A stretch of DNA of 63,595 nt, counting the filler, from Collodictyon triciliatum (lineage: Eukaryota), in NCBI GenBank assembly GCA_043381765.1. It is 6 parts of 6 records of this genome, joined end to end, with 100 filler letters (N's around TTAATTAATTAA, not from the genome) between each part and the next. Parts side by side here need not be neighbours in the genome. Positions count along the whole stretch, not along the records: positions 52,821 to 57,304 come from JBHJMP010001536.1; 5 more parts are not named here. The stretch is one strand, 5' to 3'. A program made the position numbers and the translations under genes. The notes beneath the pieces were generated by a model. It made no database searches. It was not told the DNA's origin and was given only the letters and a program-made list of their open reading frames with translations. This document shows, piece by piece, positions 3,980 through 63,595 of this stretch (the stretch's first letter is position 1; every line of letters begins with the position of its first letter).

Positions 3980-6389
3980 ATGGCCACGGCAAAGATCGTA
4001 AGAAACCCATCCCAAAGACTTGTCTGACTATGCGCCTGATTATGTGTCTGGTTTGGTTTGTGAATCGGACTGTTTCTGAGCCGAATGGGTTTTGTGGNNN
4101 NNNNNNNNNNNNNNNNNNNNNNNNNNNNNNNNNNNNNNNNNNNNNNNNNNNNNNNNNNNNNNNNNNNNNNNNNNNNNNNNNNNNNNNNNNNNNNNNNNNN
4201 NNNNNNNNNNNNNNNNNNNNNNNNNNNNNNNNNNNNNNNNNNNNNNNNNNNNNNNNNNNNNNNNNNNNNNNNNNNNNNNNNNNNNNNNNNNNNNNNNNNN
4301 NNNNNNNNNNNNNNNNNNNNNNNNNNNNNNNNNNNNNNNNNNNNNNNNNNNNNNNNNNNNNNNNNNNNNNNNNNNNNNNNNNNNNNNNNNNNNNNNNNNN
4401 NNNNNNNNNNNNNNNNNNNNNNNNNNNNNNNNNNNNNNNNNNNNNNNNNNNNNNNNNNNNNNNNNNNNNNNNNNNNNNNNNNNNNNNNNNNNNNNNNNNN
4501 NNNNNNNNNNNNNNNNNNNNNNNNNNNNNNNNNNNNNNNNNNNNNNNNNNNNNNNNNNNNNNNNNNNNNNNNNNNNCTTATCTTTTCCGCCTCGTTTAGG
4601 AGAAGAAAACAAACTCTTCAGGTATGTATTTCTATCGTAGAATCCAGAATACATAACTACGAATGAAATTAGTGAATATTCTGCAAAGCAGTCAGCGTAA
4701 CATTTAATGCGTTCAATAGGCTTGACTCTGAAAGACATCGACAATAAGTTGAGAGATATATGGACGAAGGAGAAAATTGTGCTTGGCAATTTTCTAGGAA
4801 AGGGTGCTTTTGGAGACGTTTATCAAATGAAAAACAGAGTCTCTGGAAAAAATGCAGTGATTAAAGTCCAGAAAATACAGGGACAGGCAAAATTATCTAT
4901 GGGCGAAGTGATTGAATCACTAATATTGGAAACACTGTTTCTGAAAGAATGCCGTGGATGCAAGTTTATTGTGGAGCTAATGGGTGTATATCGAAAGGAG
5001 AGTCAGCTGTACATCATCATGGAGAACGCAGGCATCTCCCTCAAAAAGATGATGGAGACTCCTAAAGAGAAAAAACCTAGTGCTCTACAAGTTGCCCAGT
5101 TCTCGGAGCAAATCTGCACCGGACTTATCTTCATGCACTCCAAAAATCTGTTTCATGAGGACTTGAAGCATGAAAACGTGATGATTGTAGACGGCACAGT
5201 TAAGCTTGTTGACTTTGGGATTGTTAGTCGAAGGGAAAACGAAAAGGTCGGCTCACACCTTCCTACTAGGTTCGGGGAATTGAAAAAGCATGGAACGGTA
5301 AACTGGCAAGCTCCCGAAATACATGAAGTAATCTGCAAACCATACTATGATGATGAGAGCATCTATGGAGAAGAAGGCCTCAATCAAGGGCATCGCGGAG
5401 AACCAAGTAATGTCTACGCATTCGGACTTCTCGTTTGGTACATGTTTTCTGGTGTGGAGCCGTTCCTTGGTGAAAAAGAGCCTCAACGTTTCCCGATTGG
5501 CGGCCTGCGACCGAGGATGCCAGCACACGTCCCATTGGAGCTACAGTTACTGATTAGAAGCTGTTGGAGCCAAAACTACAAGTTCCGTCCATCCCTCCTT
5601 ATGGTTTCAAACTATCTCCGTGAACTGCAAACAAAGAATCTAAAACTTGGCGAAGAGGTGGCAAAGCAACTTCTTCCAGGGCCAAACTCGACAGCATTGG
5701 GGGATATGTACCGAGGCGAGTTTGTAGAATTCTTGTTCAACAGCGGATGCCACTCTCTTGGCGAGAAGATTGGAAGGAATGAATGGGAAAGAGTGAATGA
5801 CAATCCTGAAATATTGGAAGAACGCGAGCTCATTAAGAGATATCACATAACACGAGAACAAGGACTGCAGTTTGTCGAAATATCCAAACAGGCAGCCAAA
5901 CCTTCTTCAAAACACCCAGGCCCTCGTCTCGTGAAGGACCTAGAATCTAGTGAGTTGCGGTCATTCTTACATGCAGAGAAATCTCTGGGGGCGCTCTATG
6001 TTCTTGCGAAGGGGTTGGGATTAAGCGGGGGAACAATTTGCTTGCTGGACCGACCGGGAATTCTTTCAAAATTCTCTATTTCCTTGGAAGATATCAAAGC
6101 TGCTGTAAAGGCGATTGAAGGCAAGTCCAACCCAGTAGAATCTCGCTCTGCCGAGCGGGGGCTTAAGCTAAGCGCAGCTTCCCAGGTGGCGTTCGAAAAG
6201 AGCTTGGTTTCAGGCAAGAAAGAAGCCTTTGCCACAAATACTCCCACAGCTTCTTCATCTTCTACATCCAACCGGATTCAGTCGCCACCTGCTTTGGAAA
6301 CAAGCACAACAGGAGGTGCAAAACCCCTTGGTGTTAAGGCAATTGGCTCAATCTTCGAGGGGAAAGGAGCTATCCCCAAGAAAAACTAA
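3980..6389 (+). CDS. Protein kinase (TKL/STE-like fold, non-RD) with two C-terminal SAM-like helical domains and an S/T-rich tail
   Basis: GKGAFGDVY, AVIK, HEDLKHEN, DFG, GTVNWQAPE, CWSQNYKFRPS in the large exon 4720-6389. Proposed 5' exons MATAKI (3980-3997, donor gtaaga) and EKKTNSSG (4600-4621) join in phase; a gap lies between them, so the start is tentative. Confidence 0.85.
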
Positions 6390-7282: not shown

Positions 7283-10200
7283 TTAGTTGTACGAAAGAAT
7301 CGAGCCAAGCCACTTTTCGACTGTCTCAACAGATTCGTTCTTTCGCTTCGCATAGTCTTCAACCTGCAAGGCAGAGAGTTTAATAGTACTCAAACACATC
7401 AACATCGAAAATCAGGCAATATGCGTATGAATTTCAGGTAAATTAGTAAGTATATAATAAAAACGAATAAAGAAAAAACATAAGGGTAGGGGGATGCGAA
7501 TTACCTGGTCTTTTCCAATTTTACCCACAGCAAAGTACTTCGCCTCGGGGTGGGCAAAGTACAGACCACTAACAGACGCAGCCGGGGTCATAGCCAGGTG
7601 CTCAGTGAGTCCGATGTTTGTCTTCTCTTCAATCTGCAACATTTAGATTCCGTTAAACATATTCTCGTGTATGAAAATATCGTCAGTGCATCGCCATTTG
7701 TACATGCAAACCAGCGTGTCGAAGTAGGGCGGTGCTGGTAGTGTAATATTAGCATCGGAATTACCTTCGCAAGTTGCCACATCTGAAGCTTTTCTGTGTG
7801 GTCAGGCTGCGAGGGATATCCAGGAGCGGGTCGAATTCCCTACACATGAGGCAAAAGAAAACAAACATAAAAACATGTAAGGAACGCCGTGCAGTTGAAT
7901 ATTTTGACTTGCTTCTTGCATAAATTTCGGTGTATATAAATGAATAGAGAGCTGGTCGCCCCAGCTTTTTTTTTTTTATCTTTTTTTAATCGTGCAGGCT
8001 CCTCACCTGATACTGAACTTTGAGAACCTCATCCAAGCTAAGGTCTTCCTGTGGGTTGTATCCCCAGTAATCCTTGCGCACAAGAAGATGGAGCAATTCA
8101 GCAAACGCTTCGGCCTAAATTATTATAAGAGAGTGGTTATCCATATGCATAGTATTTGTTGCTTTTTTTTTGAATAAATGTATATTTCTTGTTATTTATT
8201 GGCTGTATGAAAGAAGAGAGTGGAGGAGGAGAAAGAAATATTTGCTTTAGTTTGCAATGGAAAAAATAAAATATCGCAAATTACCAATCGGTCGGCAAGC
8301 GATTTAATCATAATGGAACTGTAGTCATCTCCTTCTTTTTCGTATTGCAGAGCCAGCTCGTGGCAGTTAAAGCCGGCAGACACAGCAAAGACTCCGATGT
8401 AATCAGCAACACCGGAGGACTTTGGTGCAATGTAATCAGAGAGGCACAGGTACGGCTGGTCCGTCTCCTTTTCTGCTTGTTGGCGAAGCCCGTGGAATAC
8501 AGAGACCACCTTTGTGCGGCTTTCGTCTTCATAGACCTTTGAAAATTCATATATTTCGATGATTTAAAGGACGGGAAAAAAAATGAAAGTATAATTTTGG
8601 GGTTTGCTTGAATATCACTTTTCAAAAATAAGAAAAATCCTAAGTATGAGACAAGCAACCTCCATGATAGGAAATATAATATGTTTGTTTTCAGTATTTG
8701 TGTGTTCCCGACCTCGATATCATCCCCAATGGCGTTGGCAGCATAAAGACCAACAATACCGCTGGCCTTCAAAGACTTTTGCGAAATAATCTCCTTCAGG
8801 TATCTCTGCGCGTCATCAAAGAGTTTCTTTGCCTCCAAACCTTTTAAGATGGTATAATATAATGAATATTAAGAAAATAAACTTAAATTTTATAAAAGGT
8901 GTAGATGGATTAGGAAACCGTCACCAAGGATTATTTTTATTTTACAATGTTTTTTTTTCATCTTTCAAATCAAATAAATCAGCTCATTGAACATTCATAC
9001 CAACTGTGGGGTCGTCAAAAATTTTTGGATATCCTCTGTGGGGGTACTTTCCTCGCAACTGCCACACCTGGAAGAATGGATTCCAATCGATGTGCTTCAC
9101 AAGGTCTTCTAGAGGGAAATTATCCAGCACCTTTTCAAAGTAATACGTTAAAGCTGTAAAAATCGGTTATTTTGTTTTTCTTTTTCTTTTCTTATTCGTA
9201 ATGCAAAATAGACAGCATTGTTTCAAGATTGATTATACATGGACACCGAGCTTCTTTGGCACGGCTGTAGGTGTTTTCTTGAAGTCAATTTTGAGTCCCT
9301 TTTCTCTTGCTTTGCTCAAGGGAAGATACTTGCGCTCTCTGAGAGTGGCATAGTGCTCCTCCCTCAATGTCTCGTACTCATCTTCGACGTCCAAGATGTA
9401 ATCATCGCGGTTTTGTTGGTCTAACAAGCTGGATATCTGGGTGAGGAGGATATTAGTGCTGTCTGTCAGTTTATAAGCGATGGACTGATCCCCCTGGTAT
9501 TGGTCTGAGACCAATAAAGTTTTTTTGTGCTTTTGATACGGAAATGTATGTGTGTGTATGATTTAATACGCATACCACAACCACAGAGCGAGAAGCATCA
9601 AGCACGTGAATCACAGGTGATTTATACTGTGGTGCAATTTTGACGGCAGTGTGAATCTTGGAAGTTGTTGCTCCTCCAATTAGAAGTGGAACCTGATCAG
9701 GGGGGACACATTACTATGATGACATAATTATATTTGCATTGGTATGGGATATTGTGCTTCGCAAGCACTTACTGTAAAACATTCAAGACAAACTAAATAA
9801 AGAAGTGTGTATGTGACATATACATGCAAAATGATACAAACATTCAGCCCACGACGCTGCATTTCCCTAGCGACTGTCACCATCTCATCGAGTGATGGGG
9901 TAATAAGACCGGATAAGCCAATAATATCAGCTTTCTCGTCAATTGCTGTTTGGATAATTTTTTCGCAAGGTGTCATTACGCCGAGGTCAATAATCTGTGA
10001 GTGCGAGTATGGTTCGATGTTAAGAGGGAAGCCTAGAACATAAATTTCACTTCTGTCTTTTTCATATGTTAGCGCTCATACCTTGTAGTTGTTACAGCCG
10101 AGAACGACAGCAACAATATTCTTGCCAATATCGTGCACATCTCCCTTGACAGTTGCCAGGACAACTAATTGGAATTAAAACCGGAATAATTAGATTACTC

Positions 10201-13200
10201 TTTTCATTTGGAAGATAGGTTCTTTAGACAGTTGCTTTTCTAACGTTAAATCGAAGCTCTGACACTTATGAATTCGAGGAAAGAGGAAGGTATCTGGTAT
10301 CTACTTTTTAATGTTTCAACACATCTTGAATACAATACACTTACCAACTCCTTGATTTTGGACTGCTGCATCTGGATTTTCGAGTATTTGGAGCTTCTTC
10401 TCTTCTTCCATGAAGGGAATCAAATAAGCCACAGCCTTCTTCATGACTCTGGACAATATACAAAGAGTGTGATTGCCTGCGTGTATATGTATTGTGGATA
10501 CACTAGATGGACCCTGAACCAAGGCGAAAATAATCAAGACGTAATTAACCTGGCACTTTTGATGACTTGGGGTAAGAACATTTTTCCTGCACCAAATAGA
10601 TCTCCAACTGTGCTCATACCTTTCATCAAAGGCCCTTCGATGACATTGAGTGTCTTCGGATGCTGCAATTTCAAGAAATCATCACATGAATAAGCCTACT
10701 GAAATACTGCAAGTAACTGCAACAATGGAAGCCCTTATATATTGACACTGGCTTACCTTCCGCTTATCCTTTCGAGCATCTTCTGTGTCTTCGACAATAT
10801 ACTCAACGATACCTTTTACCAAGGCATACGATAACCTCTCTTCCACAGGTAGAGAGCGCCATTCTTCATCGACCTAAATTGTGTTCTATGTTAAACTAGT
10901 GGTACCCAAAGTAGAACACCATCATGAGGAGCTACATAGAGATTGGATATTCAAATTTAACGAAGTGAAAAATCGTATTAGTTTATTTATCCTTTTATTA
11001 TTATTATTTTGACAATAAAACCTTTGCGGCCTTTGTTTGGCCCTTTGATTTGCTAGCATATTCCAGTAATGCTTCAGTAACGTCCGATCTGATAACGAGC
11101 ACGGTTTAAATGGCGTTTTACTTCTAATTTATGGATTCTTCTCTTCATTTATCGATTATTTTGGCATCGTCTCTCATTATGCTATCTAACGAATATTCAT
11201 CTGCTCAGATTTGAATCAAACCTCCTGTTGAAGATGGCGTCCTCGCAAAGTTGCAACAAATCTTTGGGAATATCCTCGTAAAGGGGCAAATTGCCTGCGT
11301 TTACGATACCCATGTCCATTCCAGAGCGGATTGCATGGTACTATTATTGTGATAATTTTTTTTAAGTAACATTAGACGTATTCAATCATTTGTGTGTTTG
11401 TAAGATGCTAACTGAGAAATTCGTGTGCATAAGCAATAATAAAATAAGAGGGAAAATAACGTTTTGAGTGTGTAAATTGTACCAGAAAAGCACTGTGCAT
11501 ACACTCTCGAAGATAATTTTGCCCTCGGAAGGAGAATGACAAATTGGAAACACCGCCACTGATCTGATAAAGTGGTGGAGGTATCAGAAGTGAGAATAAC
11601 TATCTCTCTTTAAAAATAATAATAATAATAATAATACAACAATCATGCTGAATAGTTCATATTGATATAGCAATTACTCTGCATCCAGGACACGCTTGTT
11701 TAATCAGTGGGATACAATCGATGAAATTTTTGGCGTAGTTGTTGTGCTCCTCTATCAATTCAGATAAAAGTCATCATTTTGCATGCGATTGAAAATGTTG
11801 TCAAACTTACAATTACACATGTACTTTTTTTTTTCATACTACATGCAAATTATGAAATTGTTCGTCACACATGGCACGAAGGATGCATTACCCATTCCCG
11901 TGCAGATAGTGAGAATATTTGGGTCAAAAATGATGTCGTGAGGGTCGAATCCAACCTCATTGACCAGTATGTCGTATGAGCGCTTGCATATGCGGACCTT
12001 GTCGTCAACTTCAACAGCTTGGCCATCCTCATCAAACTGTGAGAAAGAGAAAAGAGTGTTCAACGTAGTCCATGCAAGGTATTTAATGAGAATAAGTTTC
12101 ATAACAAGTCAAGGTTCTTGAAGTCTCCATGAGTGCATTTGCTTCATATTTAAGCCTAGGACGAAATTGAATAAAGATATTAAGAACAGGAAGCCCTACT
12201 GCCATTACAATCACTGCTGAACCGAAGCGGTGAATAGTCTTGGCTTTCTCGATAAAATCGGCTTTTCCTTCTTTCAAGCTATAGAGATAATGATGCCATT
12301 TTCATGAGAGAAGGATATGGGTGTTACGCACCTTATGAAACCTGAAACAAGAGAAGGAGACGCCAATGTAAAAGAAAGAGATATAAAAATGTCCAGAATA
12401 TTTTAAAAAAATAGAAGGGCATTTGAAAGACCTTATACTGTTTACGACGCATTTTCCTTGGGCACACTTCAGTCCAGCGGATATAACGTTAAAGTTCGAT
12501 GAATCGATCACAATTGGAGCCTGAAAAAAAATATTTTTGAGATGGTTAGAATAAAAAAAATGTAGCATAAAATATATAGAAAAAACGGACAGGGAAATTT
12601 AAGGCTCTGAATAATGGCTCATGAATAATTAGGATACGCAGAATGTCCTACTTTGGCAATTTCTGGGTCCGATGCAATCAGGTTGATAAATCTAGACATG
12701 GAGCTGATGGCATCGAGCATTCCCTCGTCCATATTAAGATCAATCATTTGTGCGCCTGCTTCGACTTGAGCACGGGCTATAGCAAGCGCTTCCTATGATG
12801 TTTAGGGTATATCTTGGTTGTGTATATATATGCGACGTTGACATATGTGTGAATGAAATTGACAAGGAAATTAGAAACCAAAGAGTGACAAATTCATTTG
12901 GTGAGGATATTTGTAAATCGAGCCTATTTCCAAATGAAACTGTAAAAGAATTCTAAATTGGAAAGAAAGGTCAAAGTTGACAATATTCAAACCTCAAATT
13001 TTCCGTCGATGATCATCTTAGCAAAAACACGAGACCCAGCGACGTTGCATCTCTCTCCAATATTAGCAAAGATGATATTTTCTGTGAGGATGTAGGGCTC
13101 GAGTCCACAAACTGCAAATCTGTGATGGGTCGGAGCTCACATCAGCTTATGGTTGCATGAAGATTACTGTGTTTTGTCAAAAAAAAATTGGGAAAAAGTG

Positions 13201-16030
13201 TATTTGTACAAACTGTGGAGCTATCTCGGGAATCTGTCTCGGAACAACACCAGTGACAGCCTTTTTCATAGCAGCAATGTGTGACGGTCCAGTACCGCAG
13301 CACCCTCCGATTATGTTGATAAGTCCGGACTCAGCGAACTCTTTGATGATGTCCGCCATGTCTTCGGGTGTCTCATCATAGCCACCGAGAGCATTGGGAA
13401 GACCAGCGTTTGGATAGCACAGAACAAAGGTGGGTGCTAGCTTGGAGAGAGCAGCGATAAAAGGGCGCATGTCGGAAGCACCGAGAGCGCAGTTCAGACC
13501 GATGCTAGGGTGTATATTTTGGTTCTGAGTCAGACGGATACCAAATTGGAGGTCATTGCATCGATAAAATAAAATGGAAGGTATATCCAGATAATGTTTC
13601 GAGAGGACACGTGAGAATAAAATAATCATGAAATCTTGGTCTTACGCCAAACTCTCGATGTATAAAAAAAAAAAAGGAATATTTTTGGTGTGGTAGAAGG
13701 AGGAATGAAAATTTAACATCACGCTATGTCATGTTTTTTACACAATTAAAAATAGAAGAATGTGAAGACAAACGCAAAAGGCTTTGAATGCCGCACACTA
13801 ATCCAAAAGGCTTCCGTTGTTTGTCCAGATAGGGTTCTTCCACTCTTGTCAACAATTGTTCCAGAAATCTGTTATATGGTTATCATATAGACTGATAAGA
13901 ATATGTTTATCATGAATCGACTCGAAAAGCAATAGGAAGGTGTTAACATAAGTCAAAATTTGGCAGCTTAGTTTGTGGTGTACCATGATTGGAACGTCTC
14001 TGTATTGGGGATACTTCTCCATGTAAAGATCAATGGCAAAGAGTGCAGCCTAATGTTGAATGCACAATAAATGCGAAGACATACATTGGGTTTAATCACG
14101 CAATTGTTATTTTTAGATATCTAAAAATAACGCGGTAGAATGAAAGTTTCGATATAATGATTGGGATGTAGCAACTCAAAAATGTAGATTTGCATATTAT
14201 CGGAGTCCCATTTTCTTTTTAGTAGGGAATAGGAGAAGATAATTAGATTATAAAAATTAGAATAGACCGACCAAATATGTGTGTTTGAATCTTGTTGTCT
14301 CCCTCTCAAACACAAGTCTTAAAAAAAAAAACTACACCCATATCCAGATTTCGTACCTTAGAATTGGCCGTATCAAAAATGGTCTCAACAAGGAGGATGT
14401 CGATGCCACCCGCAATCAGACCATCGACCTGCTCGTAGTATGCCTCGACCAACTCATCGAAGGCTAAGGATCGAATTGTGGACCATCAGGGAATTAGAAA
14501 ATTATAATGCATCGATGCTTAGTTATAATCCGGTTTTTCCATGAGTAAAGATGTATCTCGAATGCCATGTTTCAGCAATAAGCTCACTAATGTTGCGAAG
14601 AGCAGGATTTTCGACCGACGGAGATATGCTGAGAGTGCGATTGGTTGGACCGACAGCGCCTGCCACAAAGCGCGGTCTATCGGGCGTGCGTAGAGTCATT
14701 TCTCGACATGCAAGGGACGCGATTTCGGCAGCTCGTTTGTTGATGAGGAAGGTCTGTTGTATTCATATGTATCCGTTTAAATTGAATGAGTGAAGAAGCA
14801 TAAAACTGCCCCAATGAAAAAGCACTACTCTAGGGATAGAAGAGTGCATGAATAATGTTAAGGTGTCTTTTGGGCTGGATGGAGGGGAAGTTATAATGCG
14901 GTATCGTTTCTTTGGGCTCATCAAGTATATAACTTCTAGAATGAATGTACCTGTTCTTGCATTTGGTAATCAGCCTGGGAAATACGTGTTCCATTAAAAG
15001 TGTTTGTCTCAACCATGTCAGAGCCAGCCTCCAGGTAGTTCTGTGTAGTTGAGACGTGTGAATTAAAGAGTCGTGTTCAAAAAATCGACATATCTGAACT
15101 TTTTGTGAAGGTATTTTTTTCCCTTTTGTGTAGGTATTTTAAAATTATAATGAGACGAGATAAGGAGTTTCTGGCTGTGTCTAATTGGCTGATTGTGACA
15201 TTCAAATATATATCAAATATTGGTATGATGGAGTCATGAAGGGGCTTGTTTTTGTTTGTTTTTGTTTGTTTTTGTTTGTTTTTGTTTATTTTTGTTTATT
15301 TTTGTTTATTTTTGTTTATTTTTGTTTATTTTTGTTTGTTTTTGTTTGTTTTTGTTTGTTTTTGTTTGTTTTTGTTTGTTTTTGTTTGTTTTTGTTTGTT
15401 TTTGTTTGTTTTTGTTTATTTTTAGCTTTTTAAACATCCCAATGTTTACGACAATAGAGTGAATCAAGGGGCATATGCATACCAGGTGAATGCGTTGGAT
15501 TACGTCAGGCTTTGTGATACAAAGAAGATCGTTGTTTCCCTTGAGGTCGTGAGGATGGTTTGCGAAGACCTCTCCTATGTTGTTTCCATTGAAAGTAACT
15601 ATACGTTCTCACATTGAAGGTTTCTATATTACTTTTATTTTTCTTCCTTTTCCTTTTCTTTTTTTTTTTTCCTCCCTCCTTGGATGTTTACATATCGTTC
15701 TTTCATCGTCACAACGCGAAGAGAAGGTCAGACCATTTCACAAGAAAATGAGAAATACCGCGATAGTCAGCTTCAGTTAACTTGAAGCTCTGGATCTGTG
15801 TTCCCATCCCACCGTCCAAGAACAAGATCTCGTTCTGCAGTTTCTGAGTAAAGTAGGCACGCACCTCTACACAGACAATTATTCAAGGTCAAGAAGGTTC
15901 CTTTTTTTTCTAGTTTTTTTTGGCACAGTTGCATAGAGAACAAGGGCAAGAACCAGGGATTAAACAACAAGGGATGCATACCAGCTGGCGTCATGCGTTT
16001 GTAATCAGTCTGTCCGACTCCAGAGTCCAT
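7283..16030 (-). CDS. MTR: Cobalamin-dependent methionine synthase (MetH/MTR), complete, 32 exons
   Basis: Spliced end to end with GT-AG introns: [29 protein letters not shown] (Hcy/Zn domain), [11 protein letters not shown] (pterin domain), [15 protein letters not shown] (B12-binding DxHxxG), GIRPAPGYP and [10 protein letters not shown] (reactivation domain), ending WLGSILSYN*. Confidence 0.98.
15245..15422. repeat. (TTTG/TTTTTG)n microsatellite in an MTR intron
   Basis: Seen directly. Confidence 0.9.
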
Positions 16031-52820: not shown

Positions 52821-53061
52821 AAAAAAAGAAAAAAAAAAAAAAAAAAAAAAAAAAACAACAAAAACGAAACAAAAACGAAAAAAAACAAAAAAAAAAAAAA
52901 AAAAGGCGTAAAAAAAAAAAAAAAAAAAAAAAAGAGGGCTGAGCCTCTCAGTGCTTTTTGATCAACCCGATTATATCAGCAGCAAAGCCATACTGGCTCA
53001 CCTTTCCTTTAATGTCCTTTCCGAATTTTTAAAGAGCAAAAATCATTTTTAGTAAAGAGTT

Positions 53062-56000
53062 ATGATCCTCGTCGCTGGCCAGCTGAAAAGGGGATTCACT
53101 CCCAGTAAGATCTCGCTGATTTAGTTCAAGAAATCTTTGTAATCAAAATGCCGTTGCTTAATCCCTCGCTCATTTTTTTCAAAGCCTAGAAACTTGAATT
53201 ATGTAAATATAAACTAGCTAGGGCTTAACAATAGTTCCACAATATCTTTTAGGTATTTTTGTTGGGATATTGCTATTGCAAGTGGCGTGGTGTGATTACC
53301 TAATACACTCATTTGGTTCGCCATCATCAGTCACGTCGCTTGCTATAACCCCTGACAGCTCTAAAATCATATCTGGGAATGCAGAGAGTAAAATTCAAGT
53401 ATGGGATATCTACAGTGGCAATTTGCTGCAAACTTTGACGGGTATGAATCAAAACATCACAAGCCTTGTTGTTACCCCCGACGGGAACAGACTAGTATCA
53501 TACAGTGGCGATGGAACCATAGGAATCTGGAATATTGCTAGTGGCTCTTTAACTCGTGCAGTCAAGTTCTTTATGGGGTTTGATGTTTGTATGACATTAA
53601 CACCTGATGGTGCAAAAATTGTGGTCGGGAGCTCTAATGATTACAAAGTTAAAATATTTGCTTTCTCTAATGTGTCATTGATATCATCACTGTCGGGTCA
53701 TACAAGCAGCGTAAATAGTGTCACAATTACCCCTGACGGCTCGAAAATTGTTTCTGGGAGCTCCGATAAGACAATCAAGATTTGGAAACTTTCTGATGGA
53801 GCATTAAGTCGTAGTTTAATGGGGCATGAAGGAAGTATTGAAAGCGTCGCAGTTACTCCGGACGGTTCGAAAATTCTTTCCGGTAGCCAAGACAAGACAA
53901 TCAAAATATGGAGCATGTCTGATGGGGTGCTCCTGAAAACTCTACATGGGCACACTGGATACGTATTAAGCGTAGCAATTCACCTTGATGAATCTTTTAT
54001 CGTTTCCGGAAGTGATGATAAAACGATTAAAATATGGGACTTATCTACTGGTGTTTTACTTGATACAATTTTTGGACACACCGACTCGGTAAATATGATT
54101 GCTATTCCACTAGATGGAATGACAGTTGTATCTGGAAGCCTTGATGAAACCATCAAGATTTGGAGTATCATTAATGGATCGCTAGTTCGCACCATAGAGG
54201 GTCACGCAACTACTATATTATCTCTTGCAATTAATGCTAATGAAACAATACTTGTGACAGGAGGGCAAGATAAAACGGTCAAAATATGGGACCTCGCCAC
54301 AGGTGTTATGACATATACTTTACTCGGGCACACCGGGTCTGTAAATTCATTGGCAATCACACCTGACGACACTAAAATTGTCTCTGGAAGCGATGACAAA
54401 ACAGTCAAAATATGGAGTCTTATTTCTAAAAGCCTCATTCGGACCCTTGTAGGCCACATAGAGTCAGTAATGTGTGTGTATATCTTTCTTGACGGCTCAA
54501 TGATAGCCTCAGGAGGATGGGACACAAATATAACACTCTGGAATTTAAGTGATGGCACCATTTCTAGATCGTGGAAAGCGCATACCAGTGCTATAATGAG
54601 CATAAATGTATCGCAGGACGGGGAAAAACTTGTATCTGGAAGCATAGACACCACGTTTCGAGTTTGGGAGCTAGCCAATAACGCCCTTTCTTTTGTTCGC
54701 TCAAACAATGGCTTCCCAGTATACAGTGTTAGTATGACTCTTGATAAAAACTTCATCATAGTCGGTGGGGGTGGGGGAACCATCAAAATATGGGATATTT
54801 CAAAACAATCGATCACCCAGGAATTATTTGGCCACTCCAATTTCGTCACTAGCATTCGTTTGACCTCTGACGGGTTGGGTGTGGTATCAGGCAGTGCAGA
54901 CGGTACAATTAGACTATGGAATTTCGTGGACGGGTCTGCAATTAGCATTCGTATCGGTCATAGAGGCGGAGTAAGTGACGTGGCCCTTGCACAAAATGCG
55001 AATAAGATTTTATCAGTGAGTTATGATGAAACAGTTAAGCTTTGGGATCTAAAAGAAAACGAAATCATTCATAAATTTACAGCGTACGTGAATGATCTAG
55101 TGGCAGTTATTTATTCTCATGATGATTCGCTGCTCATTACAGCTAGTTTTGATAATCAATTCATCAAAGTATGGGATGCAGAAAATCTGCTGGTATCTAA
55201 ATTCATAAATGCAATACCTAAGGGTATGACATGCTTAGTGCTTACAAAAGACAACACCATTGTGATAGCAGGTGGGGCATATGGCACCATATCAGCATTT
55301 TTCGTATCCAGCGGGACAACTGCTTTTAGTATCACAGACGCTGAAAACGATAAGACGATAAAGACACTCATATTGACACCAGACAACTCAAAGCTCATTT
55401 CTGGAGGAGAGAGTACTAATATTAAAATATGGAGCATGTGGAATGATAGCTTGCCTCTTGTGTTAATCGGCCATTCAAATACTGTCTCCAGTTTGGCTGT
55501 TGTATCAAACGGCTCCGTGCTTGTGTCAGGTAGTTACGACCGCACTATTAAAATATGGTCCATTGATGAGGGAGTCATAAAAAAAAGTATAGTTGGACAC
55601 GAAGATGCCGTACTTTCAGTGGCAATTACACCAGACACATCCTATATTGTATCCAGTAGCTCTGATCGCAATGTCAAAATTTGGAATTTCAATACATATA
55701 TGTTAGCTCGTATAATCTCTGGAAATTCAAACTCTGTAAACAAGATAGTGTTATCTGTTGACGGTTCAAATATCATAGGGGCCCTAGCCGATTCACTCAT
55801 AAAAGTATGGGATTTTTCTGGAGAAGTCATTCGTATCATGTCTGGGCATCAAGGCAGTGTACATACGTTAGGCATATCACACAAAGGTTCGAGGATAGCA
55901 TCCGGTGGGGCAGATGGAAATGTAGTTGAGTGGGACATATCCACAATTTGTGAACCTGGATACTATTACGATAAGTTTTCAAATCTATGTAATAAGTGTG

Positions 56001-57304
56001 CACAAGGTTACTTCAATCCATGGAAGGGACAATATTCGTGTACTCCCTGTCCATCAGGTACTTACAACTTAAAAATGGGTGCCATAGACGAAGGAGACTG
56101 CCTACCATGTATCGAAGGGACCTACAATCCATTCGTTGGACAATCAGAGTGCAATAAATGTTCGAAGGGAACATTTAATCCGAATACCCAGTCAACAATG
56201 TGGTATAAAGCATGTTCTGACTGCCCTAAAGGGTCGTACGGTGATGCTATTGGCATCAGTTTATGCCATTTTTGTCCTCCGGGAACATTTAATCCGTCAA
56301 CTCGGTCCATAAGCAACAATTCATGTACCCCATGTGAACCTGGTACGTACAATGCTGTGGAAGGCCAATTTATATGTATTGAATGTAAACCTGGATACAT
56401 ATCAACTGGACAAGGTAGCTCTTCATGCGAGCCGTGTACCCCAGGGACTTACGCTAGCTCATCAAAGTCAACTAAATGTACAGCTTGTCCAGAGGGGACA
56501 TTCAATCCTAGTATTGCATCTTCATCCTTGGAGAGCTGTCAGCCTTGCAATCAAGGGTATTACTCATCCACACCTGGAACTTCATTATGTAGTCCTTGCC
56601 CACCCGGAAAGTATAGCTCCAGCAAAAATCAAACTCAATGCACAGAGTGTCCTTCTGGAACTTACAACCCAAATAATGGCGCCACTTCAATTAACGATTG
56701 CATTATATGTCCAGCAGGTGCATTCAGCGATGACGAGAGAAATAAGTGCACATTATGTCCAGCTGGTACATATAATGGAAAAAATCAATCTCATGGCCTA
56801 GATAGCTGTAAAAATTGCCCGAGTGGATATTACAGCAACCAAGGAAGTTCTTTTTGCTCTCAATGCCCTTCAGGGTTTTACCAAATTCCCGAAGCAAAAC
56901 GGGACATATCATCCTGTGCAAAATGCAAAAAGGGAACATTTAATTCACAACCCGGGCGAACTGGGGATTCATCTTGCATAGAATGTCCCGTTGGTTCATT
57001 TGGAAACGAAACTGGTTTGGTATCTTGTATATCCTGCCCCGCAGGAACGGCAAATCCGAACAAAGGGTCAAGTGAGCCAAGCGTTTGCAAAGGATGTAAA
57101 CTAGGGTACTACAGTTTGGTGGGTAGTTCAATATGTATTGCATGTTCTTCAGGATACTACCAAGGAACGGATATGATGAAAGACCCTTCGTCATGCTTGA
57201 AATGTCCAACAGGAACATTCAACTCGCTGATTGGCTCATATGGCAACTCTTCGTGCATACAATGTCCGCCTGGTACGTATAATGATGAGGAAGGACAGCC
57301 GTCG
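53062..57304 (+). CDS. Signal-peptide protein with 21 WD40 repeats followed by tandem GCC2/GCC3 (ephrin-receptor-like) Cys-rich repeats; 3' truncated
   Basis: Proposed exon 1 53062-53104 (donor gtaaga) splices in phase to 53253, giving MILVAGQLKRGFTPSIFVGILLLQVAWC-DY; 21 counted GH..WD-type units to about 55937; then CxxCPxGTY/F repeats up to the spacer. Confidence 0.9.
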
Positions 57305-57404
57305 NNNNNNNNNNNNNNNNNNNNNNNNNNNNNNNNNNNNNNNNNNNNTTAATTAATTAANNNNNNNNNNNNNNNNNNNNNNNNNNNNNNNNNNNNNNNN
57401 NNNN
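57305..57404. other. Artificial assembly spacer
   Basis: N44-TTAATTAATTAA-N44. Confidence 0.95.
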
Positions 57405-57463: not shown

Positions 57464-59914
57464 CTGCAGTAGACTATTTTCCAGTCTCTGAAATTGTTTG
57501 ACCATTATATCCTCCATTTGCTTTATATTAGTTATAAAAGTATAATAATTATACTAAAGGAAAAAATAATAATAATTTTTTTTTATTCTTCCTTTCAATT
57601 TTGTGCAGGATGGTGAAAAGAATAATAAAATTTAAAATAAAATTTGCCAGAGGGAAATAACTATCATAAAAATTGGTGTATTCCTTTCGTCATATATTCA
57701 TTTTTTTTAAACCTTAACAGAGTCCCCAATAAAAGTATCTGTTTGGTGAATTCGATTTTCGATTAGCCCAAACCTCTTCCTGATTTCACAGAATTGTAAA
57801 TCAACAGATGGGATAATTTCTTCAATTTCATTCTATGGTACAAACATACGATTTTTTTTTAATTAATGTTGTAGAATGACTTCAAAGTTGAACCTCCAAA
57901 CGAATTATACCATAATGAAAATTTTAATATATATAGGCCCCATTAAGGTAGAAAGAACGTCTGAAATTACACATCTATTTCGGATTTGAATCGTATTTTG
58001 TTCCCTGTTTCTCCCTTCGTGCTCTACTATATCATGGATCTTTTCTGACATTTCGTCCAACAAAACCTTAGATAAAAGTAAATATTATTAATCAATGGCT
58101 GATATGCTCTTAAATATATTCTTGATAACCTCACCTTGTAAACCTCTTCATTCTCCTTTACCAAGTCATTCAAATATTGAACTGCCTTTTGTAGTTTGTT
58201 AAAATTTTGCATGGTCTCTTCATCCTTATCTGAGACCATCTTCTTCACTTCTTCCAATATATCGGGTGGATCGTCTATCTGAATTTGTTGCTAATTGAAA
58301 TATTCAGTGACCCATTTTTTTTTTCACGCGCAGATAATACAACAAATGTTGCGAGAATTCATAGTGTTTCTAATGATTATTTTGTCAACCTGTTCGTAAA
58401 TAATATGCGTTTCCATCATTCCCGTTGATAAAATATATCCTGTCTCCCTTGTAGAAGGAAGCTTCGGACTAATAAGAAGTCAATTGACATAACTTCATGA
58501 TATTTGAATAATTTGTGGAGCAGTCTAAATTCAGTATGTGCCAAAAACAAACAAACAAACAAACAAACAAACAAACAAACAAAGAAACAAACAAAGAAAC
58601 AAAAAAAAAAACGAATCACAATAAAACTTTAATTGTGTTTAGTGTTGAACCATAATGCATAGTCACCTGAATAAGCGGGGTCTTTCGTGTCGTTGTAATT
58701 CGAACTCTTTTTCAAAATTGGAAATCCTTAGCCTTAAGTCATTCAAATCAGCATCCAAACTGTTGCGTACATATTTAATCTCTGACGTTATGGATTCCTT
58801 GAAGACTTTATTGTCATATTGTCGATCTTTTTCCCTCTATTGATATTAGTTTCCCTTATGAATAGATAGACACATAGACACACACATATAAATATATATA
58901 TATTTCGCCTCAAATGAATAGAAAATAGAGGTAATCCTGAATCCTCCATCATAATTAAAAGTAATATTCTATTAAAAATGATAACAAATAAAATTTACTC
59001 TGAAAAGGCATTACCTCGGTCATTTGTTGAAATTTATCGGATGTATCTCGGACACGGGTATTTATAACTGCCATGGTCTAGAACAATTGATAGACATAAT
59101 CACAATATATACATTCCATTTCAAGTTAAGACAACTCAATGAAAATTACATAATCAACTGGAGAGGGCTATCATAGAAATTGAATGCTAGGTTATCGATT
59201 ACATTCCCGTGCTGAACGATGGCATCTTCATTCACTTTGATGCGTTTTTTCAGCTCTTCTATTGATATGGTCGCTTCTTTCACTCTGATTTCAATATCAC
59301 CTTGCTTTTCCACATTTTTTCGAATAGCATCGAAGTCATTCTTCTGTTTTTCTATAACGACATCTGTGCTCTGACCCAAAAGAATATAAAAAGTTCAAAA
59401 AATTAAAATAAGCTACATAGGCTTACTTACACATGAAGGAAAACCAATATTTGATGCACAGTCATGTTAGTTAAGAGAATCATCATGCTTTACATATTTA
59501 CATTTTAACACAAAACCAAAGCTCATGAGTTCAAAGTATAAGGATTGGAACTGACCAAAAAGTTGTGTAAATAACTGATATATCAAATATGACAAACCTT
59601 TGATACTTCGTCCAATCGTAATATATCCGCCTGAATCTTGTCTCGCATGAGATGAACATCGAGAATCTTCGAGGATGATAAATGCCAGTTACTAATTCTT
59701 AAACGAGGGTAAATGTGCATCATCAAGGAAATGAGATGGATAATAAAGATAATTTGTAAATAAAAGTAAAAAAAATCAAAAAACAAGAAGCTAAGAGAAA
59801 AATGAGCGGTCACCATACCCCTGTCTTTAGCAACTCTTCAGCAGCTTTGGTTTGAGACAAAGCCACCTCTAATCGAACTTCGCTATCGACGAGTCGCATT
59901 TGGTTTGAATGCAA
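57464..59914 (-). CDS. Internal exons of a coiled-coil hypothetical protein (both ends missing)
   Basis: Exons with GT-AG borders: SEVRLEVALSQTKAAEELLKTG|ILDVHLMRDKIQADILRLDEVSK|STDVVIEKQKNDF..|TMAVINTRV..|REKDRQYDNK.. Confidence 0.65.
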
Positions 59915-61538: not shown

Positions 61539-63595
61539 TTCACACCAGTGCTCTTGGAATCAGAAAGTCGCCTTTTTTTTTCGAGACGATTATTTGCAGA
61601 GGAATTGTATGAGTTTTGTCCAGGAACATAGATTACAAGAAATTTGGAGATGAAATAATTGAATACTTCTGCACGCATGTTGCTTATCTTTTTGGGTTAT
61701 TTAATGTTCTATATGTATTCAGGTGAAGAAGATTGACAGCCGACTGAGGAAAAATATGTCTATTTATAGTTTTGATTTACGTTTCAGTGGTCTCAGGGAA
61801 ACGATTTATAAAATGCTGGTAACGGAGCTGCTCGAAAGATTCCTCGGCTTCGAAAGTTTGATTCGGGATGGACTGTAATAATTTACCTTCAAACTAAAAT
61901 TGCACCATAAAAAATGAAAAAAATTATGGGGATTTAATATTTTGATACCAAAAATCTATATTTTAAAAGAAATAATATATTTGGTTATCCACCTTGGTAA
62001 ATAAACTTGAATAATAATATGGGTCAATCACCTTAGCAGGTTGATTTACTAAAGTCGCGCAACAAATGTCATGATTGTGGGTCAGGTGTTTTAGTAGAAT
62101 GCAAGGACGCGTTTATTCGAAATTTTCAATAAATTTATCTGCTAAGAAATTAACTTTACGTGGAATTCTGGGACTCTTAGTAGGTATATTCACTCCTTTT
62201 GATATATTTATAGTATCAGACTCATCCACCGAATAGTAGCCTGATAAATTAACTTGCCCTTTGGTAATGATTATCAGAGCTAAAATTGAAAAAAGAAAAA
62301 TTCAGAATTCAATTTAAGCAGTGCAATTACCTTATTACAATCAATTTTTGAATACCATAGAATAAATAAATATGCAGTATCGCAACATAAATAAATAATA
62401 AGTAATTCTACGCTTTCCAGGAGCAGGCAATGAATTGAATGATTTTCTTGCTGCTTTTGAAGAAATATCCCAGGAAACTTATGTGTAGTGTGCACCAAGA
62501 AGGAAGTAGATTTTAATGATGTGCAGTTACATCTTTATAAGAGAATGAACAAAAGGCTTATGCGTATACAAGAGAAAAATTAGTATCTGTTAAACATATA
62601 ACATGTGAGATCTGTGGAAGTCCTATTCGCAGTTGCAAATATTGCAAAAACGAAAAAAAATTTATTGGTCATTCATAACTGTTTTTTGAAAAGAAAAATT
62701 AAATGCACCTGTGTCATTAAAGCGCAACTCCTCGAAAGACAGGTGACTGAATTCAATATTTCCAGTAATTGATGTGATGTACATTCCCTCCATCTAATAC
62801 TCCGGGAGATATATAGTCAAATTATGAGAGATTCTTCGATCAAATAGTAATTATGGTCTCAGGCGTAAATAATTGCAATTGAACAAATGGGGCCATTAAT
62901 ATCCTATCGTAAATATTACCATTATTTTTGATGGATGCACTCCGCGACTCGAACTGTTAGCTACAAATCAAGAGTGTTGATAAGTCACCCAATTTATGGA
63001 AATAATCCACGCACAGACCCACCCAAAACTTAATATACTTTGGGTTTATATTTCTGACTGGAGCAAGTAAAATATACAAATAAACAAATAAACAAATAAA
63101 CAAATAAACAAATAAAAATGAGCAAGTAAATAAAAATAATAATCGAAATTCATTCCGAAAGTTTGGGAGTGCATTTATATCCACATATGATATACTTTAA
63201 AGTATAAATGCAGAAAAGAATCAAATAAAATCGAGAATAAGGCATTCAAATAGAAGGCGATCATAAGTTTTGTACGCAAATTTTCTGTCTCGCAGGATTA
63301 AAAAAAATATATTCGTACCAAAGTGTGGATCACCCGTATTTGATGTCCGAGAATATCTAGAGCTTTGTAATTTTCCTTTATTGTCGTCTTGATGATTGAG
63401 CCCTCCTCCTATACCGCCCGGACCTGAAGGTACTCCAAATCCAAAGCCTTCGTGATTGTGCCCTCCTCCTATACCGCCCGGACCTGAAGGTGCTCCAAAT
63501 CCAAAGCCTTCGTGATTGTGCCCTCTTCCTAAACCGTTCGGACCTGAAGGTGCTCCAAATCCAAAGCCTTCGTGATTGTGCCCTCCTCCTAAACC
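61539..63595 (-). CDS. Partial multi-exon gene: Gly/His-rich GFGFG repeat exon and a putative GLEBS-like exon
   Basis: Open frame through the 60-bp repeat ending at donor gtacga (63318); candidate exon 61781-61886 KLLQSIPNQTFEAEESFEQLRYQHF; exon linkage not established. Confidence 0.35.
63393..63595. repeat. 60-bp tandem repeat, at least 3.4 units, runs off the window
   Basis: Unit tgattgtgccctcctcctataccgcccggacctgaaggtgctccaaatccaaagccttcg with few substitutions. Confidence 0.95.

Follow-up and report, generated by a model that had tools for sequence, protein, structure and literature searches.

A single open reading frame in the 63,595-nt stretch of Collodictyon triciliatum DNA analysed here (the window) joins 21 WD40 repeats, predicted to fold as three seven-blade propellers, to a run of at least 11 Cys-rich modules of the Ephrin_rec_like (GCC2/GCC3) type. 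We assign a probability of roughly 0.55 to the product being a secretory-pathway protein with a signal peptide, the three WD40 propellers, the Ephrin_rec_like stalk and an anchor encoded beyond the contig. An extracellular propeller head on a stalk is the best reading because the two parts should share a compartment, the stalk matches known ectodomains and a signal-peptide-like stretch stands directly before blade 1. The first-pass annotation had arrived at a similar picture. Its domains, their common frame, the extracellular or lumenal matches of the stalk and the signal-peptide-like stretch all stand, while the location itself is only what we infer from them.

Gene structure

The window is a chain of contigs with N44-TTAATTAATTAA-N44 spacers and the gene lies on the contig at 52821-57304. 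On the plus strand no stop interrupts the frame between 53222 and the end of the contig, which gives 1345 stop-free codons counted from 53270 in the standard code; upstream a stop codon at 53219-53221 closes it. The frame runs to position 57304, where the spacer at 57305-57404 takes over, so the 3′ end of the gene is missing and the C-terminus is lost at the spacer, as was first annotated. With that side cut and 241 nt of contig before the proposed ATG, the gene is uncertain at both ends. The contigs of RNA run X1 differ from the window at 11 coding positions, eight of them third codon positions (binomial p about 0.009), and this excess indicates that the frame is under constraint. GC at third positions is low in both halves, 0.37 in the WD40 part and 0.34 in the Cys-rich part compared to 0.46-0.59 in other genes of the window, a weak and not decisive similarity. 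A tblastn search of the window gave two HSPs, none beyond this contig, hence no paralogue elsewhere in it.

No ATG on the contig other than that at 53062 can be connected to the main frame by GT..AG sites. The start model that follows from it, a 43-nt first coding exon (53062-53104, plus strand; ATG, 14 codons and one base) and a 148-nt intron (53105-53252, plus strand; GTAAGA...TTTTAG), is plausible on sequence grounds. In size and ends the predicted intron resembles those of methionine synthase in this assembly (85-200 nt, GT..AG), and the exon shows two differences from run X1, Leu to Leu and Arg to Lys. The 53104/53253 splice junction is absent from the contigs of four runs (X1, X2, X3 and X9), a lack of cover that is uninformative either way; the single contig that spans 53023-53192 passes through 53104, yet it is part of an antisense spliced form.

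The model yields an n-region with a Lys-Arg pair, a hydrophobic core of 12-13 residues and A-x-C ahead of the first repeat. The core and its small-residue end (A-W-C) are encoded at 53253-53299 on the plus strand, where IFVGILLLQVAW and then C-D stand directly before the first WD40 profile match (nt 53300); the hydrophobic N-terminus ending AWC-D had been recognised from the start. Hydropathy detects no second hydrophobic segment anywhere in the model; here the mean Kyte-Doolittle value is 2.39 in a 12-residue window. AlphaFold gives the first 17 residues a pLDDT below 50 and no strand of three residues or more. A degenerate WD40 strand was considered for this stretch and rejected, since the profile match begins after it and the model has no such strand. 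The n-region, core and small-residue end would together form a putative cleavable signal peptide.

The WD40 head

Three sets of seven repeats follow on the plus strand at 53300-54166 (repeats 1-7, propeller 1), 54167-55048 (repeats 8-14, propeller 2) and 55049-55945 (repeats 15-21, propeller 3), the last comprising the most degenerate units and then a two-residue link. The divisions derive from Pfam, the repeat register and the model, which has pLDDT dips near residues 300-320 for propeller 1 and 600-610 for propeller 2. PF00400 scores 472.8 bits (cut-off 27) over 15 stretches, many WD40 propeller families match too, and the W-D/N/K/S/E register gives 21 units with a period of 42-43 residues, in agreement with the three-times-seven count proposed earlier. 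The AlphaFold model of the WD part has a pLDDT of 90.2 and 83 strands for the 21 repeats. Foldseek places PDB entry 2ymu first (E 2.7e-51), which also matches in sequence with 446 bits, and its best matches are WD40 proteins with seven-blade propellers in tandem. The repeats are read as three seven-blade propellers, in each of which four-stranded blades would close into a ring. Pairwise identity among the 21 units averages 29% with a maximum of 60%.

The WD part carries no sign of adaptation to an ectodomain: sequons occur at chance level and the Cys content is ordinary. The first-pass annotation drew attention to nine N-x-S/T sequons in this region and the number is correct, but shuffling expects 9.8 +/- 2.6, so there is no enrichment and sequons were rejected as an ectodomain sign. 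Depletion of cysteine was likewise rejected, as the three Cys in 883 residues lie at the 27th percentile among 193 homologues. With that Cys content no blade disulfide is seen.

The Cys-rich stalk

At least 11 Ephrin_rec_like modules occupy 55946-57304 on the plus strand, where they are cut by the contig end; Pfam, PDB sequence matches, the model and Foldseek all identify them. The part comprises 453 residues, 49 of them Cys, and PF07699 scores 239 bits (cut-off 23.1) over 11 stretches, which upholds the original description of about 450 residues of Cys-rich repeats. An alignment with 16 relatives has 54 invariant Cys/Gly columns and the AlphaFold model has a pLDDT of 87.0. The mastigoneme protein MST1 matches the stalk with E values of 4.8e-37 by PDB sequence and 3.3e-24 by fold. 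In Foldseek, 13 matches reach E<=0.001, each of them to an MST1 or ELAPOR1 entry; those to TNF receptors and EphB6 are weaker. The significant structural matches of this half are, without exception, extracellular or lumenal disulfide-rich ectodomains, and the solved relatives MST1, ELAPOR1 and TNFR suggest that the modules here are disulfide-bonded and extracellular or lumenal.

Union of head and stalk

The junction at 55946 is in frame and lies precisely where repeat 21 gives way to the first Cys module, and hydropathy of the whole model detects no hydrophobic segment between the array and the modules. Since the two parts share one frame with no such segment between them, they should reside in the same compartment. 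Near-identical DNA repeats are absent from the junction and from the rest of the contig, where repeats are 60-89% alike over short cores only. None of the contigs of the four runs (X1, X2, X3 and X9) covers 55671-56270, which is uninformative either way. Runs X2 and X9, from one freshwater metatranscriptome study, each contain exact pieces of both halves.

Is the same architecture found in other proteins? The searches comprised a word-seeded comparison with the whole protein (the 120 best of 4743 matches, none covering more than 70%) and an exhaustive phmmer search in which residues 601-1345 were compared with 1.84 billion representatives (the 150 best of 306,716 matches, down to a score of 417 bits). 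By local phmmer, none of 260 homologues combines WD40 with Ephrin_rec_like (193 have WD40 only and 67 are Cys-rich only), where the homologues are the best listed and weaker or shorter relatives lie outside this scope. A metagenome scan with the junction peptide gave 24 loci, all of them WD40-side matches and none with both halves; at two (L006 and L021) the match extends past the junction, and their translations read as WD40 proteins with no Cys-rich repeats. In the literature searched, including the accessible text of PMC2394772, we found no description of a WD40 fusion to the stalk domain. The layout appears, from sequence comparison, to be rare. It is new in its WD40 head, propeller-on-stalk surface proteins being already known.

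Comparison with related proteins

An RCC1-like propeller N-terminal to Ephrin_rec_like repeats was present in four of the ten Cys-rich matches scanned. Examples of such proteins are Ostreococcus tauri XP_022838323.1/CEF96829.1 (the cluster of P0170), Percolomonas cosmopolitus MMETSP0758 (P0223) and the metagenome proteins P0242 and P0248. In these proteins, as here, a seven-blade head at the N-terminus leads directly into a long Ephrin_rec_like run, 35-39% identical to our stalk. Signal-like N-termini occur together with C-terminal hydrophobic anchors or several transmembrane segments; P0170 and P0242 each have the signal-like N-terminus and the anchor, judged by hydropathy. The difference is in the head, one RCC1-type propeller (PF00415/PF25390) as against three WD40 (PF00400) propellers; the best 25 of 54 families listed for the protein described here do not include RCC1. 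By these comparisons our protein would not be an RCC1-headed member, and its stalk is homologous. We found no paper on an RCC1-propeller - Ephrin_rec_like family, the names in use being database annotations only.

The plant receptor CRINKLY4 follows the same logic. The accessible text of a preprint on ACR4 and PpCR4 describes an ectodomain with a signal peptide, a seven-blade propeller (which its authors call a WD40 domain) and then a TNFR-like Cys-rich domain (bioRxiv 10.1101/2020.08.10.245050). The order of propeller and Cys-rich domain behind a signal peptide is the point of likeness. CRINKLY4, however, has a single propeller with one disulfide per blade, one Cys-rich domain of about 90 residues, a transmembrane helix and a kinase, whereas here there are three propellers free of blade disulfides and at least 11 Ephrin_rec_like modules, and neither a transmembrane helix nor a kinase is on the contig. 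The protein is not a member of that family.

MST1 of the Chlamydomonas mastigoneme and the apicomplexan CRMPs use the same Cys-rich module, but their heads are Ig-like, Kringle or EGF domains and not WD40. CRMPB is described, in the portion of the preprint available, as a GCC2/GCC3 protein that spans the membrane nine times and is required for rhoptry secretion triggered by contact (bioRxiv 10.1101/2022.02.24.481622). Several giant matches to the stalk end, by hydropathy, in multi-pass regions like that of CRMPB.

Signal-like N-termini are seen in 34 of the 193 WD40 matches, and in 23 of those the first WD40 match starts within the first 51 residues, which implies that such arrays do occur outside the cytosol. 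Exported bacterial and archaeal examples include the 2ymu-type arrays of Nostoc, a Gemmataceae protein (P0084) and P0148. They resemble the present protein in the regular repeat consensus and in a signal-like N-terminus placed closely before the first WD40 repeat (23 of 193), and differ in having no Ephrin_rec_like stalk (0 of 193); the signal-bearing ones are 22-27% identical.

The NACHT-WD40 proteins of fungi and cyanobacteria (HET-E and NWD) are also among the top sequence matches of the WD part, with 33-35% identity, and L006 is such a locus. They are cytosolic, however, with an N-terminal NTPase, and their repeats are near-identical with hypervariable positions. The label 'NLR-style' given in the first-pass annotation is not supported. 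The best 25 of 54 families listed include no NTPase and in particular no STAND NTPase N-terminal to WD40; the stop at 53219-53221 closes the frame, though off-contig exons are possible. The repeats have diverged, at the mean and maximum identities given above and 60-89% in DNA over short cores, unlike those of HET-E/NWD-type arrays, and the regular consensus fits bacterial WD40 arrays such as 2ymu just as well.

A model for the protein

On the preferred reading, the contig would encode the first ~1365 residues of a modular secretory-pathway glycoprotein of a freshwater heterotrophic protist. The short first exon and the 148-nt intron would supply a cleavable signal peptide, and the mature chain would start at once with the 21 WD40 repeats, three consecutive seven-blade propellers forming a head of ~100 kDa. 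This head would pass, with no linker or membrane segment, into at least 11 disulfide-laddered Ephrin_rec_like modules that make an elongated stalk, and a membrane anchor or other C-terminal parts would lie beyond the contig end. By analogy the propellers might be a platform that the stalk keeps clear of the cell surface and that binds particles, prey, substrate or partner proteins. The domain content, single frame, folds and constraint on the frame stand as shown; the signal peptide, extracellular location, anchor and any binding role are what we infer, and to cast the protein as a receptor that recognises prey, pathogens or self is speculation.

Few interaction platforms in eukaryotic cells are as common as WD40 propellers, and to our knowledge the canonical eukaryotic proteins almost all reside in the cytosol or nucleus. 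The propellers of eukaryotic ectodomains belong to other families, such as YWTD, Kelch, Sema, FG-GAP and RCC1-like. A more ambitious proposal, which we offer tentatively and would not favour at even odds, is that a deep-branching predatory protist (collodictyonid-like, CRuMs) displays three outside WD40 propellers on an Ephrin_rec_like stalk as the first eukaryotic PF00400 ectodomain, perhaps after a bacterial-style, self-folding array was swapped for the RCC1 head of an older family of protist surface proteins. Such a protein may sense contact with prey or a partner, perhaps through a CRMP-like multi-pass C-terminus, and its expression might be governed by antisense RNA. If the extracellular reading is true, then the WD40 family can fold and work in the eukaryotic secretory pathway, head domains are exchangeable on a stalk that many protists use for surface proteins, and a poorly known, deep-branching group of predators gains a candidate recognition molecule. 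The value is moderate until a full transcript is available, the gene being incomplete at both ends, and no long-standing question is opened.

Alternative explanations

Several questions bear on this assignment. Could the protein be a building block of the cell surface and not a sensor? A secreted or surface component of a filament, coat, scale or extrusome, mastigoneme-like and with the propellers as assembly interfaces, is unlikely, though less so than the other alternatives. Of the solved relatives, filament-forming MST1 is the best match to the stalk; its Cys-rich domains make the main subunit contacts according to the accessible part of the structural report (PMC10602792), and the WD40 repeats have diverged with no sign of diversifying near-identical units. 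Against this, the Ig-like domains and polyproline helix of MST1 are not seen here, and in other relatives of the stalk the C-terminus is a membrane anchor or a multi-pass region. Is the gene larger than it appears? Exons 5′ of the contig might encode a cytosolic domain, for example an NTPase, with the hydrophobic stretch serving as a signal anchor or transmembrane helix and the WD40 and Cys-rich parts still outside. The contig starts just 241 nt before the proposed ATG, the frame open from 53222 offers a possible alternative acceptor, and P0148 combines an exported WD40 array, one transmembrane helix and a P-loop NTPase. We regard this as distinctly improbable, given that the hydrophobic core is short, that an exon with an ATG and canonical splice sites fits within the contig and that its two differences are silent or conservative.

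Might the two halves be an artefact? A chimera, in which assembly or amplification had fused a gene for a cytosolic multi-WD40 protein to one for a Cys-rich surface protein, would fit the missing bridging contig in the four runs and the lack of a compared homologue with both halves. As general context, and not for this assembly, the accessible text of a preprint reports that draft genomes of related protists were made from amplified single cells, in which chimeras are frequent (bioRxiv 10.64898/2026.06.11.730069). We give it little credence, however: the join keeps the reading frame and coincides exactly with a domain boundary, where no repeat is shared, GC3 is similarly low on both sides, the same two runs hold exact pieces of both halves and the layout has precedents. 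It is very unlikely that the protein is intracellular, its N-terminal stretch not a targeting signal and its Cys-rich repeats cytosolic, for instance in metal binding. The usual location of eukaryotic WD40 proteins and the unadapted WD part would accord with this, but in both sequence and fold the Cys-rich half comes closest to disulfide-bonded modules that are extracellular or lumenal, MST1 displays a disulfide ladder in the accessible part of its report (PMC10602792), and stalk relatives have, by hydropathy, signal-like N-termini and membrane anchors. Finally, antisense RNA overlaps the 5′ half of the gene. Spliced contigs of run X1 on the minus strand (53023-55338) skip six stretches of 75-176 nt, have GT/GC..AG ends on that strand at five of the six joints, contain no long ORF and are the only spliced RNA seen over the gene in the four runs. 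These would suit a silenced or decaying gene with a spliced antisense non-coding RNA as its main product, an option we consider the most improbable, in view of the 1345 stop-free codons, the eight of 11 X1 differences at third positions of the plus-strand frame and the confident fold predictions.

Gene structure and domain content

The contigs of the window are separated by N44-TTAATTAATTAA-N44 spacers and the gene under study lies on one of 4484 nt (52821-57304). A single plus-strand frame stays open between 53222 and the end of the contig, giving 1345 stop-free codons from 53270 in the standard code. The first-pass annotation described a WD40 array followed by Cys-rich modules, and both are confirmed in this one frame. 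Pfam on the whole translation reports WD40 (PF00400, 472.8 bits, 15 stretches), many other WD40-propeller families and Ephrin_rec_like (PF07699). The last 453 residues, scanned alone, match Ephrin_rec_like at 239 bits in 11 stretches, with weaker overlapping matches to NCD3G, ELAPOR1-type TNFR and TNFR_c6. The W-[DNKSE] register delineates 21 WD40 units with a period of 42-43 residues. Cysteine accounts for 4 of 912 residues in the WD part, as against 49 of 453 in the Cys-rich part; among 193 homologues the WD part ranks at the 27th percentile for Cys content. On the small contigs the genes are flanked by extended A-rich stretches and microsatellites of the (CAAA)n type, at 52821-52940 and 58540-58600.

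We consider the best explanation, at a probability of roughly 0.55, to be a protein of the secretory pathway in which an Ephrin_rec_like stalk bears three WD40 propellers as its head. An extracellular location, an anchor and any receptor function would follow by inference. The layout is unusual and testable, and the gene is incomplete.

The 5′ end and a putative signal peptide

Upstream, the WD40 frame stops at a TAG (53219-53221), and its first in-frame ATG does not occur before residue 59 of the translation. Only one ATG of the contig joins this frame via canonical sites, the one in the first exon proposed by the first-pass annotation, 53062-53104 on the plus strand. The proposed intron, 53105-53252 (GTAAGA...TTTTAG, acceptor 53253), is typical judged by the 85-200-nt GT..AG introns of the methionine synthase gene in the window. 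The junction 53104/53253 occurs in no RNA contig of the four sequencing runs compared (X1, X2, X3 and X9).

The modelled N-terminus carries a Lys-Arg pair, a hydrophobic core of 12-13 residues (IFVGILLLQVAW), A-W-C and then Asp. By hydropathy it is the only hydrophobic segment in the gene model, with none between the WD40 and Cys-rich parts. The first WD40 profile match starts at the Asp-Tyr following A-W-C (nt 53300, profile position 3) and AlphaFold gives the first 17 residues pLDDT values below 50, without any strand of three or more residues; a propeller strand is thereby ruled out. The sequence is that of a putative signal peptide. Nine sequons were also noted in the WD part; the count is correct but equals the shuffled expectation of 9.8 +/- 2.6.

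Predicted folds

For the WD region, 893 residues modelled from an alignment of 49 sequences, AlphaFold gives a mean pLDDT of 90.2, a pTM of 0.47 and 83 strands, with dips around residues 300-320 and 600-610. This is as expected of three seven-blade propellers, presumably closed rings, in loose mutual orientation. The top Foldseek PDB match is the Nostoc double propeller 2ymu (E 2.7e-51, 36% identity); behind it come tandem WD40 proteins from the SSU processome, Apaf-1, Aip1, Gemin5 and the three-propeller Trm734.

For the Cys-rich region (453 residues, alignment of 17 sequences, pLDDT 87.0) the model is a chain of small hairpins. All 13 Foldseek matches with E<=0.001 fall in entries of the Chlamydomonas mastigoneme protein MST1 (best 3.3e-24) or of ELAPOR1 (about 1e-6 to 1e-5); TNF-receptor ectodomains, EphB6 and thyroglobulin match more weakly (E 2e-3 to 4e-2). 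MST1 also matches in sequence (E 4.8e-37). In MST1 the modules have a disulfide ladder, and an extracellular filament is built from them (PMC10602792). It is mainly because the MST1 modules are disulfide-laddered and extracellular that the whole chain, WD40 included, is placed in the secretory pathway.

Related architectures

None of 260 fetched homologues, drawn from the best 120 of 4743 and the best 150 of 306,716 matches, combines the two parts; 193 have WD40 only and 67 Cys-rich modules only. The best identities among the matches listed are 34-42%. When JGI metagenomes were scanned with the junction peptide, 24 loci matched, each with WD40 only.

Ten of the smaller Cys-rich homologues (1569-2822 residues) were scanned for domains. 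In four, from Ostreococcus tauri (P0170), Percolomonas cosmopolitus (P0223) and metagenomes (P0242, P0248), an RCC1-like seven-blade propeller precedes the Ephrin_rec_like run; some of the others carry TIG, VWA or Ig-like domains. A local search found RCC1-like matches in 6 of the 67. Hydropathy indicates a signal-like N-terminus and a C-terminal hydrophobic anchor in P0170 and P0242, and multi-pass C-terminal regions in P0248 and several giant homologues. The latter recall the apicomplexan CRMPs, of which CRMPB has GCC2/GCC3 modules and nine transmembrane segments and is required in rhoptry secretion (bioRxiv 10.1101/2022.02.24.481622). The layout under study would be a variant of a recurring protist surface-protein plan in which the usual head is an RCC1 propeller or another module. 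The literature searched held no description of the family seen in O. tauri, P. cosmopolitus and metagenomes, in which a putative signal peptide, an RCC1-like propeller and an Ephrin_rec_like run are followed by a membrane anchor. In plants, the CRINKLY4 ectodomain comprises a signal peptide, a seven-blade propeller termed WD40 by the authors, with one disulfide in each blade, and a TNFR-like Cys-rich domain (bioRxiv 10.1101/2020.08.10.245050).

Prokaryotes commonly carry exported WD40 arrays. A signal-like N-terminus is present in 34 of the 193 WD40 homologues, 23 of which have their first WD40 match within the first 51 residues. One (P0148) has 14 near-identical WD40 repeats behind a signal-like N-terminus and, after a single transmembrane helix, a P-loop NTPase-like region; it appears to be an exported array linked to a cytoplasmic NTPase. 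The earlier label 'NLR-style' fares poorly: no NTPase is seen on the contig (best 25 of 54 Pfam families listed), and the 21 repeats average 29% identity (maximum 60%, among units 4-9), whereas HET-E-type and P0148-type arrays have near-identical units. The label would draw solely on a repeat consensus common to bacterial arrays.

Alternative explanations

A main rival is an assembly chimera of the two halves. No contig or read from the four runs bridges the WD40/Cys-rich junction, and the combined architecture was not found elsewhere, among either the fetched homologues or the metagenome loci. Against this, the junction is in frame and coincides precisely with the boundary of repeat 21 and the first Cys module, and self-comparison of the contig reveals no near-identical repeats able to mislead an assembler. 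GC3 is low in both halves, 0.37 and 0.34 vs 0.46-0.59 for four other window genes, and exact pieces of both halves occur in each of two runs from one freshwater metatranscriptome study (X2 and X9), at 55300-55540 and 56368-56684/57141-57304 in one and at 55320-55470 and 56962-57104 in the other. The GC3 comparison set 53270-57304 against 4707-6386, 29059-30446 and 33097-34209, and covered kinase, P450, IQ-motif and methionine synthase genes. The lower GC3 leaves room for another source, such as prey, the contig being tied to the probable collodictyonid-like source by association only. The gene is a single exon of over 4 kb; methionine synthase in the same assembly has many small exons.

There are four other main rivals. 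The protein may be structural, forming a filament or coat; it may be intracellular; it may be larger, with 5′ exons missing; or the locus may be silenced. Over 53023-55338 the X1 contigs agree with the window at 98-99% identity. One of their 12 differences falls in the proposed intron and the other 11 in the coding frame, where eight occupy third codon positions (binomial p about 0.009) and six are synonymous. Proposed exon 1 holds two of them, one Leu>Leu and one Arg>Lys. This pattern shows purifying selection on the plus frame.

A possible antisense RNA

The X1 contigs omit six stretches (53193-53299, 53373-53464, 54212-54291, 54445-54584, 54914-55089 and 55143-55217), each of 75-176 nt and never a multiple of three in length. 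Read on the minus strand, three have GT..AG ends, one of them after a one-base shift, and one has GC..AG. The fifth skipped stretch is GT..AG if two additional letters of the contig are taken to reflect one single-base difference; the sixth is non-canonical. The joined forms contain no long ORF on either strand. The simplest reading, with the RNA nature of X1 a guess, would be an antisense non-coding RNA of several exons that spans the 5′ 2.3 kb of the gene.

Other genes in the window

A cobalamin-dependent methionine synthase gene on another scaffold (7286-15867, minus strand) is covered by about 25 matches of exon size. Diphylleia rotans matches best, at 81% on one exon vs 72% and below for the next, with 15 of 25 HSPs at 70-100% identity, and the assembly is thus probably that of a freshwater flagellate of collodictyonid-like (CRuMs) affinity. 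At 63224-63595 a minus-strand Gly/His-rich repeat frame (unit about GGGHNHEGFGFGAPSGP), with no Pfam match, is open past the window end. A cytochrome P450 gene of at least three exons, with Pfam p450 in three ORFs, lies at 29059-30605 (plus), and a protein kinase (Pkinase 125 bits) occupies a single-exon open frame of 562 codons at 4701-6386 (plus, ATG 4707). The sole Rfam/ARAGORN match of the window is a tRNA-Thr (AGT) at 32900-32972 on the plus strand.
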